A DNA stretch of 24,000 nt from Clostridiaceae bacterium (GCA_020832135.1 JAFIFG010000106.1:5346-29345), one strand, 5' to 3'. Shown: positions 8,513-20,850, counted from the stretch's first letter. The notes: generated by a model from the letters alone, not told the origin. Numbers and translations are program-made.

Positions 8513-8791
8513 ATGCAAAATCAACAACAAGGTCAACAACAATTACAACAAGTAACTCAAACTTTACAACAAGCTCAACAAGCAATTCAGCAAGCTCAAA
8601 CAAACTCTAATCCTCAACAATTACAACAAGCTCAACAACAGCTTCAACAAGTAACACAACAATTACAACAAGCAACTCAACAAATGGGCACCGAAACAAA
8701 CCCTCAACAAAAGCAACAGCTTCAACAAGCTCAAAATCAACTTCAACAAGCTCAACAGGCTATGCAACAAGCTCAACAACAAATGCAATAA
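8513..8791 (+). CDS. Glutamine-rich small protein (92 aa, 50 Gln by my count), function unknown
   Basis: Strong RBS AGGAGG 7 nt upstream of the ATG and its own terminator downstream. The frame stays open through highly repetitive CAA-rich DNA. There are three modules separated by T-N-S-N-P and T-E-T-N-P. Confidence 0.7.
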   Translation: MQNQQQGQQQLQQVTQTLQQAQQAIQQAQTNSNPQQLQQAQQQLQQVTQQLQQATQQMGTETNPQQKQQLQQAQNQLQQAQQAMQQAQQQMQ

Positions 8792-8802
8792 AGTGTACAT
8801 AC

Positions 8803-8844
8803 AAAAAGACTGGTTATTTTCCTTGAGAATAGCCAGTCTTTTTG
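8803..8844 (+). terminator. Rho-independent terminator of the Q-rich gene
   Basis: aaaaagactggttatt ... aatagccagtcttttt: a long stem (one mismatch) with A/T-run flanks. Confidence 0.8.
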
Positions 8845-9008
8845 TATGATTTAAAATTAATTTTTTGATTAATTTTAAAAATTTGTCTGTATGGATCGAA
8901 TAATAATATTTTTTTTATAAATATTACAAATTATGACATTTTTCTAAAAAATTATATTGTATAATTTAAATGTTACAACTTTTTTATATTTAAGAAAGGA
9001 GGTGTATT

Positions 9009-9152
9009 ATGAAAAATATTAAGAACTATATAATGAAAAATTCACTGGGACTACTAGCTTTTTTAGCATTAATAGTTGGGACAACCTCTATTTCAACTAA
9101 CTCTATGTTTTTAATTCATCAAGTAAAATGTCCTGAAGAATTACTGAAATAA
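9009..9152 (+). CDS. agrD: AgrD-like autoinducing-peptide precursor (47 aa; not in the supplied ORF track because it is short)
   Basis: Hand translation: MKNIKNYIMKNSLGLLAFLALIVGTTSISTNSMFLIHQVKCPEELLK. GGAGG at 8998-9002 with 6-nt spacing. It has a hydrophobic/amphipathic leader, a short core, and a charged tail with a P-E-E-L motif. It lies directly upstream of an AgrC-like kinase and AgrB. Confidence 0.7.
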   Translation: MKNIKNYIMKNSLGLLAFLALIVGTTSISTNSMFLIHQVKCPEELLK

Positions 9153-9187
9153 GATTTGAGGAGTTTACTCCTCAAATCTTATTTCAC
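9151..9187 (+). terminator. Terminator-like hairpin (possible attenuator) between agrD-like ORF and kinase gene
   Basis: Perfect 13-bp stem aagatttgaggag (9151-9163) / ctcctcaaatctt (9168-9180), loop ttta, followed by a short U-rich tract (atttc). It starts within the agrD stop codon, and the kinase RBS follows about 10 nt later. Confidence 0.55.
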
Positions 9188-9202
9188 CAAAGGAGAGATA
9201 CG

Positions 9203-10561
9203 ATGGAATTAGATGTATTTTTAAATAATATTATTTTTAACATTTTTGAAGGATTAATTTTATTATTTATATTCTTAATTTTAATTAACAGAAGGAATTT
9301 TATACAAATCAATAAATTTAAAACATTAATATTTATTAGTATCTATGCTATATTTTCTTATTGGGCTACAGTTTATATGCCAGTAGGTTATCATAGTATT
9401 GCTATTATATCATTTAGTATTATCTGTCTTTCATTAATTACTTCTACTAGCTTACTACACTCATTTATGGGAATATTAATAAGTGCAATTTTTTTCATGG
9501 TTACTGAACTTATAGTTTTTGCCAGTCTCTCAATATTTAATCATATAAAAATTTCAGATATAATAAACAGCCCAATTATTAAGCTTCAAATGTCTATTAT
9601 AACACGAATCCTTCAAATTTCAATGCTTATATTGCTATATAAATCAAAAAAGATATTTTGGAGGAACATACAACCTAGCTCAAATACTATGCTTTCTTAT
9701 TTTATATTGGGTATATTTCTTATGGGTATTTTTATATTTAATGTTAGTTTTGCTGTTTCAACTAAAGAGAATATCTTTTTATATGAAATTTTGCTGTCCT
9801 CTATTTTTCTTTTATTTATATTTTTAGGAGCTTTAGTATATCAAGAGAAGAAACAACTTTTGAAAATAGAGCATGTATATAAATCACAACAAGAATATAT
9901 ACAAAATATGGAAACAATTATGAACATTATTCGCCGTGAAAAACATGATTTTTCTAATCACCTCAGTACTATACATGCTATGTGTGTACTAAATAAGCCA
10001 AACACCCCTGAAAAAATAAAAGCATATATTGATAAATTAGCAAATAGTCTACACTCATCCTATCGTTATTTCAATACAGGAAATGATTTTATTGATGGCC
10101 TATTAGCGGTAAAAAGTAATTTTGCCTTCAATCATAATATTCACTTTGAAGTAGATTTTGAAATTCCACTTAACCATTTATCTGTAGAGGATGAAAATCT
10201 TATAAGTATTTTAAGTAATATAATAGATAATGCCTTCGATGCCATTGCAACAGATGAGGATACGGAAAATAAAGTTGTATCTATCTGTACCTATGCTGAG
10301 GATCATAGACACTATTTATCTGTATCAAATAATGGTCCTATGATCTCTAAAGAAAATATAGATAAGATTTTTTCAAATGGATACTCATCGAAAACTAATA
10401 ACAAAGGGGATCATGGTTTAGGCTTATATATTGTAAAGCAATTAATAGAAAAGAACAATGGCACAATAACAGTTTCAAGCAACGAAGAGGAAACAAACTT
10501 TTTAATTAGATTTAATAAGGAGAAGATTAATCATGGAAAAACTAGCCCACAACATCACTAA
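9203..10561 (+). CDS. AgrC-like sensor histidine kinase (polytopic sensor plus HPK10-type GHKL kinase)
   Basis: 452 aa with about 6 N-terminal TM helices. H-box REKHDFSNHLSTIHAM, N-box ILSNIIDNAFDA, G-box GDHGLGLYIVKQL. No PAS or HAMP domain. The architecture is that of AgrC/ComD-type peptide receptors. Confidence 0.8.
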   Translation: MELDVFLNNIIFNIFEGLILLFIFLILINRRNFIQINKFKTLIFISIYAIFSYWATVYMPVGYHSIAIISFSIICLSLITSTSLLHSFMGILISAIFFMVTELIVFASLSIFNHIKISDIINSPIIKLQMSIITRILQISMLILLYKSKKIFWRNIQPSSNTMLSYFILGIFLMGIFIFNVSFAVSTKENIFLYEILLSSIFLLFIFLGALVYQEKKQLLKIEHVYKSQQEYIQNMETIMNIIRREKHDFSNHLSTIHAMCVLNKPNTPEKIKAYIDKLANSLHSSYRYFNTGNDFIDGLLAVKSNFAFNHNIHFEVDFEIPLNHLSVEDENLISILSNIIDNAFDAIATDEDTENKVVSICTYAEDHRHYLSVSNNGPMISKENIDKIFSNGYSSKTNNKGDHGLGLYIVKQLIEKNNGTITVSSNEEETNFLIRFNKEKINHGKTSPQHH

Positions 10562-11096
10562 TTTAATACAACAAAATAATACCAACTTAAGTGAACTAGA
10601 AATCAAAAAAATTCAATTTGGATTACATTGTTTATTTGCAGAGATATCTAAAATTATAGTTTATTTAATGATATTTTCTCTTTTTTCACTGACAAACTAT
10701 TTTTTAGTTAGTTTATTCTTCTTCTGCACATTAAGATTGATAGCAGGAGGCTATCATGAGAATACCTATTGGAAATGTTTTTTTTCTAGTTTTATTCTGT
10801 TTGTTATCATCATAGGGATAGGCACATTTTTTTTCTTTTCCTTCTATAAAAAAATATTTATATTAACAATATCATTTATTATTACTTGGATTTATGCTCC
10901 AGTAGATCATCCTAACAAACCAATACTAAGTAACTTAAGAAGAAAAAAATTTAAATATCTTTCTTTATTTACTTTAGTACTTTTAGGTAGCATTAGTTTT
11001 TTATTGCCAGAACAACTATCTACTATAGCAATAATAGCAATTTTAATTGAGACTTTATCTCTACCAGTAGGATATTTTGCAAAAAAGGGGGTATAG
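10533..11096 (+). CDS. agrB: Accessory gene regulator B (AgrB) family membrane peptidase
   Basis: 187 aa with about 4-5 TM helices. It has the conserved AgrB region LRLIAGGYHENTYWKCFFSS (catalytic His/Cys pair). Its ATG, behind AAGGAG, lies 29 nt inside the kinase 3' end. Confidence 0.8.
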   Translation: MEKLAHNITNLIQQNNTNLSELEIKKIQFGLHCLFAEISKIIVYLMIFSLFSLTNYFLVSLFFFCTLRLIAGGYHENTYWKCFFSSFILFVIIIGIGTFFFFSFYKKIFILTISFIITWIYAPVDHPNKPILSNLRRKKFKYLSLFTLVLLGSISFLLPEQLSTIAIIAILIETLSLPVGYFAKKGV

Positions 11097-11098
11097 AA

Positions 11099-11332
11099 AT
11101 GAAATCATTAAAGGGTGAACTTATAGAGGATTCAACTATAATTAAAACCTCATCCGCATCCTATAATAACCCAAGTGATTTTTTTATTGCACTTGTAACT
11201 ATAAGTGATAACTTAGATGTTGATATTCCAATATGGACACTAAAAGAGGATAAATTATTAAAACAGCATAAGGAAGTAATATTACAATTGGACACTAATT
11301 TATCTCTAAGAATATACTTACAGGAGCATTAA
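11099..11332 (+). CDS. Hypothetical soluble 77-aa protein, translationally coupled to agrB
   Basis: The ATG is 2 nt after the agrB stop, with the RBS AAGGGGG about 7 nt upstream. No TM segment and no motif I recognise. It is the last gene before the terminator hairpin at 11349-11377. Confidence 0.55.
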   Translation: MKSLKGELIEDSTIIKTSSASYNNPSDFFIALVTISDNLDVDIPIWTLKEDKLLKQHKEVILQLDTNLSLRIYLQEH

Positions 11333-11348: not shown

Positions 11349-11377
11349 AAGCTCAAGAGATCTATCCCTTGAGCTTG
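11349..11377. terminator. Hairpin between the convergent agr-like cassette and the isochorismatase gene
   Basis: aagctcaag (11349-11357) / cttgagctt (11369-11377), a 9-bp stem with an 11-nt loop. U-tracts are weak on both strands. Confidence 0.5.
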
Positions 11378-15620: not shown

Positions 15621-16115
15621 CTACTCCAAACTTTTCTTCATCACAATAGCATCCAAAGTTTTATCTGTCCATTGTAATTGAATTTTTTCTTTTCTACTAA
15701 ATCCTCTTTTCTCCCAAAACTCTAAAACTGTCTCATCATAATCATATACAACATCAATTCTTATATTTCTTACTTTTCTTTCCTTTAGATAATCTTCAAA
15801 TGCTTTATATATTTCTTTCCCATAGCCTTTGTTCTTGTATTGACTATGTAGCATCAGCAAAGATAAATAACTTTCCTCTTTGAGGCAATAATCAATAAAT
15901 CCAATTATACGACCACTGACTTTTGCCTTAATGATTAAGGTCTTAAAATTCATTTCTTTCATTTCTTCCTGTTCTTTTATGCACCATTCAATATCTATTT
16001 TATCCTTATCCATATGAGCAAAAAGAAACTTAGGATTTGAATTGTAAACCTCTTTAATTTCCTGTAGATCTTCATTCTTTATATCACATAGTCTTAAATT
16101 TTCCGTCACAATCAT
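15621..16115 (-). CDS. GNAT-family N-acetyltransferase
   Basis: 164 aa with acetyl-CoA binding motif A, QYKNKGYGKEIY, and a typical GNAT length and layout. Confidence 0.8.
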   Translation of the reverse strand: MIVTENLRLCDIKNEDLQEIKEVYNSNPKFLFAHMDKDKIDIEWCIKEQEEMKEMNFKTLIIKAKVSGRIIGFIDYCLKEESYLSLLMLHSQYKNKGYGKEIYKAFEDYLKERKVRNIRIDVVYDYDETVLEFWEKRGFSRKEKIQLQWTDKTLDAIVMKKSLE

Positions 16116-16166: not shown

Positions 16167-16478
16167 CTACTTAATTCTTCTAATATCCTTCCATTCACTA
16201 GCTAACATACTATAGATCACATGATCCACATAATGATCATATAACCACTCCGATTCTCTTGTCAATCCTTCCTTTGTAAATCCTAATCTTTCTGGAATAG
16301 ATCTACTTTTATAGTTTTCCACAGCACAGCGGATCTCTACCCTGTTTAACTTTAGGTCTACCAAGGCATGCTCTACAAATACTTTCACAGCCTCCGTCAT
16401 AATTCCTTTGCCCTGATATTTTTCTCCTAGCCAATAACCAATACTGGTGGATTTATTTGACCAATCAGTTCGGAAGAT
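16167..16478 (-). pseudogene. 5'-truncated RimJ/RimL-type GNAT acetyltransferase remnant
   Basis: The open frame runs from just after an in-frame TAA (16479-16481) and reads ...TDWSNKSTSIGYWLGEKYQGKGIMTEAVKVFVEHA...RVEIRCAVENYKSRSIPERLGFTKEG... This is only motif A onward (about 100 of roughly 180 aa). The first ATG (16400) lies inside motif A. The upstream part is replaced by an unrelated ORF in another frame. Confidence 0.65.
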
Positions 16479-20126: not shown

Positions 20127-20448
20127 TAAGTTCTATTTGGCAGAGCTTTTTCAGTTCAATGTTTGCATTCTCTTCAACTTTATCAAAAGATTTCTTTTTA
20201 GTATTGTATCGAGACTCAGCATCTTCTACAATGTTTTTAGCTTCCAACAGCTTTTTTACACCTGTTGATGTTGATGTTGCACCTATAACTCCTGCTGTAG
20301 AAATGGTGCCAATAGCAGTCGCACCTGTAGCAGTTCCCGCTACAGGGAAGTCCCCGGGGCGTTTTTTTAAAATGCTGTCGTTGAGCTTTCTTAATAACGT
20401 TCCTCTAATATCTAGGACCCTGTCTAATTATCTAATACTGGCTGTCAT
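20119..20448 (-). pseudogene. Disrupted ORF (about 109 codons) with in-frame TAA at codon 7; Gly/Ala/Thr-rich segment followed by a charged helical tail
   Basis: Hand translation: MTASIR*LDRVLDIRGTLLRKLNDSILKKRPGDFPVAGTATGATAIGTISTAGVIGATSTSTGVKKLLEAKNIVEDAESRYNTKKKSFDKVEENANIELKKLCQIELNV*. There is no ATG/GTG/TTG after the TAA, so it is missing from the ORF track. The stop overlaps the next gene's start. Confidence 0.4.
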
Positions 20449-20850
20449 TTCCCCTTTAATTCTTCTTATTATATTATCCCTTGTTACTGCTATTGAATAT
20501 CAGATAGCTATTATGCTTGGTATTCTTGGAAGGGTTGCCTTAACTGTCATATTATTTGTCCAACTAGGCTATAAAACTTTCTTTAATGAAGAAAGTTGAT
20601 TAATTATTGGTGAATAGAAAAAATAACGAGTGAATATATATGCCCATATGCTAGATGCAATTTTAGCCTATAGGCGTATTTTTTATTTATCTTTTCTTAT
20701 TTTATATTATTATTAATCATTTCGTTATGACTTTTGTCCTTGTACCCTAGACCTAAGCAATTTTACTACTCAGTTATATTAACCATATATTATAGATTAA
20801 TATAGTATGTTTATATGAAGAATATAACAAAAAATCTTGTCCCGATAGGT

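Follow-up and report, generated by a model that had tools for sequence, protein, structure and literature searches.

A regulator-less agr-type signalling cassette of Clostridia with a fourth gene, X77, and sequence features that suggest a tie to sporulation initiation

The agr loci of Staphylococcus aureus and Clostridium acetobutylicum follow the canonical order agrB-agrD-agrC-agrA. A different layout, agrD1-agrC1-agrB1 without agrA, was described by Piatek et al. in 2022 (PMC8748961) in C. autoethanogenum, C. ljungdahlii, C. coskatii, C. ragsdalei, C. drakei and C. scatologenes, and the output of this agrA-less system, in the authors' words, 'can be only speculated'. Here we analyze a locus of the latter type found in a 24,000-nucleotide stretch of DNA from a Clostridiaceae bacterium (GCA_020832135.1 JAFIFG010000106.1:5346-29345), hereafter called the window. 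Positions 9009 to 11332 of the window harbor, on the + strand, agrD, which encodes the precursor of an autoinducing peptide (AIP), an orphan sensor histidine kinase gene, agrB, and a 77-amino acid (aa) open reading frame (ORF) that we have named X77. The sequence-only reading that preceded this study had presented the arrangement as non-canonical and its output as unexplained; the regulator-less D-C-B layout was already known from the work cited above. What is new is its breadth across species, the X77 gene, a hairpin inside the cassette, a kinase core of DcuS/Spo0B-like kind, and evidence from promoters and gene neighbourhoods that points toward Spo0A.

The window locus and System 1 of C. autoethanogenum share the same gene order (peptide, kinase, AgrB), and both are devoid of a response regulator. 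The kinase of C. ljungdahlii (P0105) is 35% identical to that of the window over 95% of the query (E = 3.5e-79), the C. ljungdahlii and C. ragsdalei loci fall within our sample of related loci (L060, L061, L064), and the AgrD tail QPKCP[DE]ELLK of System 1 is common to the AgrD family of the window (L058-L061). Differences are also found. The acetogen loci, which belong to clade C of the kinase tree described below, lack X77 and often have a spo0E-like gene and a sigma-H promoter, whereas in the window (clade B) X77 is present, the promoter shows tandem hexamers and a 21-nucleotide (nt) spacer, the kinase C-terminus is longer, and a spo0E-like gene is missing.

Comparison with canonical agrBDCA reveals likeness in the His/Cys pair of AgrB, in the five-residue ring and acidic tail of AgrD, and in the receptor kinase, which is polytopic, matches HATPase_c_5 and has a DHp-CA module that aligns with AgrC structure 6e52. 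In contrast, the window order is D-kinase-B-X77 instead of B-D-C-A, X77 is an extra gene, no AgrA/LytTR protein is encoded, the kinase core is DcuS/Spo0B-like, and the ring residue is Ser where canonical agr has Cys. Unlike the agr locus of S. aureus, the window has no RNAIII-like element, and an Rfam scan gave no match to any RNA family in it.

All four ORFs had been correctly delimited from the sequence; profile hidden Markov models support three of them, and the fourth, X77, is conserved. The agrD gene (9009-9152, +) encodes a 47-aa AgrD-like precursor that matches TIGR04223 with 43.6 bits (cut-off, 19; E=2e-11). The kinase gene (9203-10561, +) encodes 452 aa, and Pfam and NCBIfam scans support its identity. 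The product of agrB (10533-11096, +; 187 aa) is an AgrB-like membrane cysteine peptidase/cyclase, the enzyme of AgrD maturation (PF04647, 131 bits, E=4e-38), with the expected His and Cys pair seven residues apart in GGYHENTYWKC, the same spacing as that of H77 and C84 in S. aureus AgrB. As read from the sequence, agrB overlaps the end of the kinase gene by 29 nt, as had been proposed, and its start is preceded by GGAG, while X77 (11099-11332, +) starts 2 nt past the agrB stop codon, behind GGGGG. The cassette genes are translationally coupled.

To define how widespread this organization is, a pattern search was performed with an alignment of 37 kinases, which yielded 80 loci from GTDB species genomes. 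Six-frame ORFs were called and searched with jackhmmer seeds, and counts are given for 82 non-identical kinases. An AgrD-like ORF lies just 5' of the kinase in 66/82 loci, agrB overlaps or abuts the 3' end of the kinase gene in 61/82, and both genes are present, in the order agrD-kinase-agrB, in 57/82. Genes flanking the cassette vary from locus to locus, and therefore the cassette behaves as an independent unit. The census of regulators covered the window and the neighbourhoods of the 82 kinase loci. In the window, no receiver domain was detected when every ORF of 70 aa or more was scanned with Pfam, or when six-frame ORFs down to 25 aa were searched by jackhmmer with REC seeds, and profile scans found no LytTR domain. 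The non-canonical D-kinase-B-X order and the lack of a response regulator in the 24 kb, both anticipated by the sequence-only reading, stand. Among the 82 loci, none has a receiver domain within 2 kb of the kinase, and four have one within 5 kb. One of the latter (L075, C. algifaecis), a 124-aa receiver encoded 2.2 kb upstream, was discarded as a partner; on reading the sequence, it sits in a CheY / CheC-like / GGDEF operon.

Recurrence of the gene order, together with the absence of a nearby receiver, rules out that agrA has merely been deleted at the window locus. A related idea is that the cassette might be a decaying remnant of agrBDCA, rearranged, deprived of agrA and no longer able to signal. 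Its appeal lies in the fact that the canonical operon has four genes including agrA, which is missing here. We consider this idea hardly credible, and conservation effectively refutes it: no catalytic residue is lost in either enzyme (the His/Cys pair of AgrB; H248 and the N and G boxes of the kinase), 57 loci keep the order, translation of the genes is coupled, and both the promoter and the internal hairpin described below are conserved. Furthermore, agrD mutants of the homologous system of C. autoethanogenum show phenotypes (PMC8748961). Altogether, the locus is a self-contained AIP module of the regulator-less clostridial type, with a clade-specific fourth gene.

A neighbour-joining tree of the kinases shows three groups. 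Clade A contains D-K-B cassettes (K standing for the kinase gene) or lone kinases. Clade B, to which the window belongs, contains D-K-B-X77 cassettes from a Lutispora-free set of genera, for example Anaerophilus, Inediibacterium, Anaerosolibacter, Geosporobacter and Petroclostridium. Clade C is made of Clostridium sensu stricto, includes the published acetogen loci, and shows D-K-B cassettes, often with a spo0E-like gene.

Several family kinases have no agrD, agrB or regulator nearby (L029, L032, L035, L053, L066 and L082), and in another case two tandem copies are found (L037/L090). Inspection of the neighbours of two lone kinases (L090 and L091) gave no hint of a partner. Lone kinases are possibly 'eavesdropping' receptors for peptides made elsewhere. 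Typical Clostridia cassettes were also found on contigs labelled as Bacteroidota or Actinomycetota: L005, in a record titled Lutibacter sp. B2, and L062, in the record of a Solirubrobacterales metagenome-assembled genome (MAG). The former is the closest relative of the window, with 57% kinase identity. Their taxonomy suggests contamination or mis-binning of the assemblies.

The window kinase is AgrC-like in topology and context but is not an AgrC equivalog. Residues 10-209 contain at least five and probably about six membrane segments, as judged by hydropathy peaks. Pfam matches, all above threshold, are HATPase_c (67 bits), HATPase_c_5 (39.7 bits; cut-off, 22) and SPOB_a (32.4 bits; cut-off, 28.1). 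Among NCBIfam models, the AgrC equivalog gives 33.9 bits (cut-off, 500), and DcuS/MalK gives 100 bits across residues 230-437 only (cut-off, 520). When the DHp-CA module was compared with the Protein Data Bank (PDB), the AgrC module 6e52 alone aligned end to end (E = 7e-9). With a DHp-only profile, the top three PDB matches were Spo0B (E = 0.03-0.26), and His248 of the kinase was aligned with the phospho-His of Spo0B. This residue, the phospho-His of a SPOB_a-type DHp, is found in the sequence REKHDFSNH; H248, N339, N343, G405 and G407 are invariant across the 37 aligned sequences, and more than 200 homologues of the kinase were found. Judging from these profile scores, staphylococcal AgrC is a more distant match to the catalytic core than DcuS/MalK and Spo0B-type kinases are. 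The previous assignment of the protein to the HPK10/AgrC type was thus partly correct: the polytopic sensor, the HATPase_c_5 match and the alignment with 6e52 agree with it, but the DHp domain is of SPOB_a type and the ATPase core obtains its best score as DcuS-like.

Spo0B and the DcuS/CitA kinases (HPK5) have, like the window kinase, a SPOB_a four-helix-bundle His domain with the signature H-[DE]-[FWY]-x-N-x-L. Unlike the window kinase, Spo0B has neither ATP-binding activity nor a membrane sensor. On the other hand, DcuS/CitA kinases possess a periplasmic PAS/Cache sensor and an adjacent CitB/DcuR regulator, neither of which is seen here: the N-terminus of the window kinase is polytopic, and no receiver domain is encoded within 2 kb of any of the 82 kinases.

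An observation on annotation can be added. In the public record of the source MAG (P0001), the kinase is called as a 279-aa 'GHKL domain-containing protein' that comprises its C-terminal 62% only. The 452-aa ORF is intact in the window and can be aligned end to end with 458-aa homologues, and the same short call (283 aa) is found in the closest relative (P0041). The deposited start codons are probably wrong, and would hide the membrane sensor.

Orphan kinases that act on Spo0A have been described in Clostridia, for example CA_C0323, CA_C0903 and CA_C3319 in C. acetobutylicum, and CPR0195 in C. perfringens (PMC11210211). The kinase of the window resembles them in being a membrane-bound orphan from a spore-forming Clostridia lineage without an obvious phosphorelay, and loci of its family are linked to Spo0A-network features (Spo0E-like genes, a sigma-H promoter, 0A boxes). 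A difference is that the characterised Spo0A kinases have a HisKA DHp, often with PAS domains, and no known ligand (PMC11210211), whereas the window kinase has a SPOB_a DHp and a genetically encoded peptide ligand.

The links to the Spo0A network are of three kinds. First, Spo0E-like genes, recognized by their SQxLD signature, lie within 1 kb of 20/82 cassettes, with a density about 30-fold that of the rest of the flanks. They are found on either side of the cassette and in either orientation relative to it, so that four arrangements at least can be distinguished. A spo0E-like gene downstream of the acetogen loci was also reported by Piatek et al. (PMC8748961), and Spo0E proteins act on Spo0A (PMC11210211).

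Second, a sigma-H promoter of textbook form precedes agrD in 21/27 clade-C loci. The pattern, AGGA and GAAT separated by 17-18 nt, follows a published definition of the motif (PMC12456013) and has a background frequency of 0.008 per 300 nt; GCAGGAAAA-N11-GTAGAAT is an example. Such promoters (RNAGGAWWW-N11-12-RNNGAAT) are located 60-130 nt 5' of agrD, for instance in C. ljungdahlii (L060), C. tyrobutyricum (L049/L051) and C. ragsdalei (L061), and appear to go unmentioned in the paper that described the acetogen agr loci. With either the strict or the relaxed pattern, no sigma-H promoter was detected in the window, in clade A or in clade B.

Third, clade B has a promoter architecture of its own. 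In the window, a putative activator-dependent agrD promoter (8923-8965, +) is formed by ATTACA (8923-8928), AATT, ATGACA (8933-8938) and TATAAT (8960-8965), with a 21-nt spacer between ATGACA and TATAAT; 43 nt separate the latter from the ATG. A spacer of this length exceeds what sigma-A can recognise by itself, and therefore the promoter probably needs an activator. A similar spacer, of 22 bp, is found in the Spo0A-dependent spoIIG promoter of B. subtilis. In 13/26 clade-B loci, among them the window (8926-8965), two nnnACA hexamers with a 10-bp period are found 21 nt upstream of TATAAT; the corresponding pattern, ACA-N7-ACA-N20-22-TAnnnT, is absent from clades A (0/14) and C (0/27), its background is 0.0044 per 150 nt, and shuffled sequences average 0.11 of 26. 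The proximal hexamer is TCGACA in 8/26 clade-B loci, and a perfect reverse 0A box, TTCGACA, lies 5' of agrD in 6/26, compared with 0.3 expected from shuffles. The window hexamers are degenerate versions of the reverse 0A box (TGTCAT / TGTAAT, compared with TGTCGAA). Clostridial Spo0A reads TGTCGAA through G2, C4 and G5, and its real targets often contain degenerate boxes (PMC3485338). A strict search for 0A boxes (TGNCGAA) 5' of agrD gave 9/69 when all loci were pooled, compared with 4.3 ± 2.1 expected, which is a weak enrichment, and found none in the window; the 0A-box signal emerged only after splitting the loci into clades and comparing promoter architectures. Taken together, four independent observations (Spo0E-like genes, sigma-H promoters, the tandem-hexamer promoter and the Spo0B-type DHp) suggest that the family is tied to the sporulation-initiation network.

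A tentative interpretation, which the sequence-only reading had not considered, is that the kinase may act on Spo0A, which would take the place of AgrA. AgrB would cut the HQVKCPEELLK tail off AgrD and cyclise its core, predicted to become the serine lactone SMFLI, and the peptide would then be exported. The hairpin that follows agrD would keep the peptide transcript in excess of the kinase and agrB transcripts. Outside the cell, the peptide would be sensed by the six-helix membrane domain of the kinase, triggering autophosphorylation on His248. We infer that the kinase might act directly on Spo0A and not on an AgrA-like LytTR regulator, and would then be a peptide-gated clostridial sporulation kinase. 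Spo0A~P, bound to the two 0A-like hexamers in tandem, which stand in for a regular -35 element at a distance of 21 nt, would activate the agrD promoter and close the autoinduction loop, a job carried out by AgrA in staphylococci. X77 could modulate the kinase or its output as a cytoplasmic accessory, without being a phospho-acceptor.

This interpretation fits published observations. In R. cellulolyticum, an AIP controls endospore formation (PMC8251862); in C. difficile, AgrD1 promotes early sporulation, and its route to Spo0A is named an open problem in a review (PMC11210211); and agr mutants of C. acetobutylicum are cited in PMC8748961 as forming fewer spores.

A number of facts weigh on the other side. 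Spo0E-like genes, sigma-H promoters and perfect 0A boxes are all absent from the window itself; hence, for the window, the link to Spo0A rests on homology of architecture. Its hexamers, TGTCAT and TGTAAT, lack G5, one of the three bases contacted by Spo0A, and with a 10-bp period they could equally bind another regulator, for example of OmpR or CitB type. SPOB_a is also the DHp type of the DcuS/CitA kinases, whose partners are CitB/DcuR, and the Spo0B match of the DHp profile is marginal (E = 0.03). Clade A shows none of the sporulation-linked features. All the clostridial Spo0A kinases characterised experimentally carry a HisKA-type DHp and not SPOB_a, as compiled in a 2024 review (PMC11210211). 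Lastly, a double agrD mutant of C. autoethanogenum, in which sporulation could not be scored, showed altered Wood-Ljungdahl and alcohol-dehydrogenase proteins (PMC8748961). Because of these limits (degenerate hexamers, the HisKA precedent, the DcuS/CitA type and other potential binders), we rate action of the kinase on Spo0A in place of AgrA as having a little less than an even chance. The scheme in its complete form, in which a peptide-gated kinase with a Spo0B-type DHp phosphorylates Spo0A, Spo0A~P or, in clade C, sigma-H drives agrD, and Spo0E-like proteins or X77 tune the response, strikes us as rather doubtful.

The same kinase and promoter data can be read in a different manner. The kinase might have a dedicated partner, which could be an orphan AgrA-like LytTR protein or a regulator of CitB/DcuR type, whose gene lies at another place in the genome and which binds the tandem hexamers 5' of agrD. 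The presence of sporulation genes in the vicinity would then merely reflect that both systems come into play when stationary phase begins. The best score of the kinase core, which is against DcuS/MalK, would agree with such a partner, as would the alignment of the entire DHp-CA module with AgrC 6e52, the poor quality of the window hexamers as 0A boxes, and the fact that clade A lacks any feature linked to sporulation. Precedents exist as well: RgaS and RgaR of C. difficile are encoded apart, and RgaR activates agrB1D1 (PMC11210211), while an AgrA encoded elsewhere has been also proposed by Piatek et al. (PMC8748961). If this were the case, however, one would expect partner and kinase to be adjacent at least sometimes, yet none of the 82 loci, which come from many genera, has a receiver within 2 kb. 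Recruitment of Spo0E-like genes in four arrangements would be left unexplained, and so would the identity of the best-conserved hexamer with an exact 0A box. In addition, the 10-bp period of the hexamers is unlike that of LytTR sites, in which 9-bp repeats recur about every 21 bp. An unlinked partner is therefore viewed as somewhat unlikely.

Even if Spo0A is the target, the sign of the signal must be considered, as the evidence of linkage (Spo0E, sigma-H, 0A boxes) is silent on it. The kinase might work mainly as a Spo0A~P phosphatase or inhibitor, switched off or on by the peptide, and the cassette would then delay sporulation. Orphan kinases that inhibit sporulation are documented, namely PtpA, PtpB and PtpC of C. 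difficile and CA_C0437 of C. acetobutylicum (PMC11210211; see also bioRxiv 10.1101/2021.11.18.469199). However, positive feedback is the better match for a promoter of activator type in which 0A-like boxes occupy -35, AIPs promote sporulation in the published clostridial cases (PMC8748961, PMC11210211, PMC8251862), and a Spo0E-like phosphatase next to a kinase in phosphatase mode would be redundant. For these reasons, we regard a negative sign as unlikely, and a positive action on Spo0A is the preferred reading.

The fourth gene of the cassette deserves separate consideration. A word-indexed search with the single X77 protein retrieved only one relative. In contrast, an iterative profile search of the loci detected X77 homologues in 31, of which 29 are distinct (29/82), directly 3' of agrB or, where agrB has been lost (Geosporobacter), 3' of the kinase. 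The same position is obtained by reverse look-ups from three divergent homologues: all follow a SPOB_a kinase and AgrB, in unrelated surroundings. When the search was extended to 1.84 billion representative proteins with exhaustive HMMER, the family amounted to 31 clusters of stand-alone proteins of 65-99 aa, and no domain fusions were found. F28, V33, P44 and W46 are invariant, as is L39 in a second alignment, and the family motif is FFxALVxxCxxLxVDxPxWTxxEE. An AlphaFold2 model of X77 has high confidence (pLDDT 94, pTM 0.81) and a beta-beta-alpha-alpha-beta-beta topology. Searches with X77 gave no match in Pfam or NCBIfam, no match by profile search against the PDB, and no significant fold match to the PDB with Foldseek (best E = 0.39). 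By these searches, X77 would found a narrow new family. Both the conservation of gene order in the neighbourhoods (57/82 loci) and that of X77 at one position (29 loci) bear out the sequence-only reading, for which a deleted agrA or a non-conserved X77 would have been troublesome.

The same reading had proposed that the 77-aa protein might provide an alternative route of transduction, with the kinase signalling through interaction with X77, or through its modification, instead of through a receiver. Confinement of X77 to the cassette, and its retention with the kinase where agrB is lost, could be taken in support of such a role. Kinases of clade B, the clade that has X77, also carry an extra C-terminal tail of 15-25 residues that is absent from clade C, which does without X77. 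In the window it comprises residues ~437-452; it follows the last strand of the ATPase domain, and its consensus is roughly K-x-x-[ND]-G-x-x-S...[YH]. Conservation of the tail is ambiguous, as it overlaps the agrB start and ribosome-binding site, which may be the cause of its conservation. Other traits argue against transduction by X77. No conserved His or Asp is found in the family alignments, where Asp42 is Gly in several members, and the invariant residues are mostly hydrophobic. The family is acidic (mean pI, the isoelectric point, of 5.3), which makes DNA binding unlikely. Two of the three kinase clades manage without X77, and there are no fusions to hint at a partner. As there is no conserved His/Asp to take up phosphate and the family is acidic, X77 is unlikely to be a stand-in for AgrA, and we deem signalling through it very unlikely. 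We conclude that X77 is probably a cytoplasmic accessory protein and not a surrogate regulator. Two specific roles were considered and rejected: a Spo0E-like activity (there is no SpoOE-like Pfam match, the fold is beta-rich and the SQxLD motif is missing) and that of a DNA-binding regulator, judged unlikely on the acidity of the family.

Loss of agrB in Geosporobacter merits a comment. In G. ferrireducens (L002/L015, 9334-9669) and G. subterraneus (L016), X77 directly follows the kinase. The X77 ORF of G. ferrireducens has an upstream extension that makes it 111 aa long and starts 46 nt inside the kinase gene, the usual place of the agrB start; the extended ORF looks like a deletion scar. A full D-K-B-X77 locus is also present in G. 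subterraneus (L009), and hence AgrB may act in trans there, as proposed for System 2 of C. autoethanogenum.

As for the signal, alignment of 72 AgrD homologues places a Ser, Thr or Cys five residues before [HYQ]Q, and the tail is nearly invariant, [HYQ]QP[KE]CP[DEK]ELLK. In the AgrD of the window, S-M-F-L-I directly precedes the conserved HQVKCPEELLK tail. The C. perfringens sequence CLWFT|HQPEEP provides an analogy, on which the AIP ring is predicted to be an S-M-F-L-I serine lactone. Two side observations can be made: the tail to be cleaved holds a near-invariant Cys (KCPEELLK), and in several precursors (for instance L001, L006, L008 and L010) the residue at which the ring would form is Thr and neither Ser nor Cys. 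An AIP closed by a threonine lactone would be out of the ordinary.

A perfect 19-bp hairpin (9145-9186, +) that includes the agrD stop codon separates agrD from the kinase gene. With a free energy of -27.1 kcal/mol (z = -7.7), it folds better than every one of 200 shuffled sequences. Hairpins with z < -3 occur at the same position 3' of agrD in 41/63 non-redundant loci, with unrelated sequences, and many in this survey carry U tracts. Conservation of position but not of sequence, together with the U tracts, points to a leaky terminator that would leave the peptide message in excess; the element is thus probably a leaky terminator or an RNA-stabilising element that would provide a high ratio of agrD to kinase/agrB transcripts. 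A strong hairpin at this point also means that the four genes are not a single uninterrupted transcription unit. Therefore, the tightly packed four-gene block initially described is accurate in its coordinates, but the hairpin that interrupts it had been overlooked.

The cassette is bounded by two further structures. Upstream, the structure at 8802-8844 has a stem of 20 pairs with T-rich sequence behind it; it is scored as a terminator on the + strand, as had been proposed, and serves a Q-rich ORF. Downstream, a hairpin with a 12-pair stem (11349-11376) had been taken for a terminator of the cassette; however, its terminator score is on the - strand, because it is common to the convergent X77 and isochorismatase genes. 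The Q-rich ORF itself (8513-8791, +), just 5' of the cassette, encodes 92 aa that are nearly all Gln, Leu and Ala (QQLQQAQQ...); it is made of 21-nt (7-aa) repeats, has its own terminator, and its sole match is a weak, sub-threshold one to DUF4398. The G+C content of 9001-11000 is 0.25-0.27, compared with 0.28-0.35 in the flanks, a figure consistent with horizontal acquisition or, simply, with the AT-rich codon content of membrane proteins. A promoter-like site antisense to the kinase gene (9623-9596) was given no weight, as promoter-like sites in the region are as many as in shuffles.

Farther from the cassette, a complete 164-aa GNAT acetyltransferase gene (15621-16115, -) adjoins a 77-aa ORF (16167-16400, -) that matches the C-terminal third of Acetyltransf_3 only and may be a truncated or split acetyltransferase gene. 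A 146-aa ORF (20159-20599, +) resembles UPF0014 in its last 35 residues, which cover no more than the C-terminal end of that profile (positions 208-242 of 242), and it may be either a gene fragment or an ORF with a mis-called start.

Two gaps were stated in a 2024 review (PMC11210211): which signals and kinases activate Spo0A in the absence of a Bacillus phosphorelay, and how Agr peptides affect sporulation without an AgrCA pair. In the cassette described here, which occurs in at least 80 species, peptide and receptor form a defined pair, together with an undescribed 77-aa partner with a confidently predicted fold. If the target of the kinase were an ordinary orphan regulator, the window locus would be one more member of a published locus type, accompanied by a new small protein family. 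If, instead, the kinase acts on Spo0A, no earlier pair of peptide ligand and kinase would be known to govern how Clostridia enter sporulation, and the cassette would bring with it a new family of small-protein modulators. A synthetic peptide could then switch sporulation, as well as programmes coupled to it such as those for solvents, toxins or acetogenesis.

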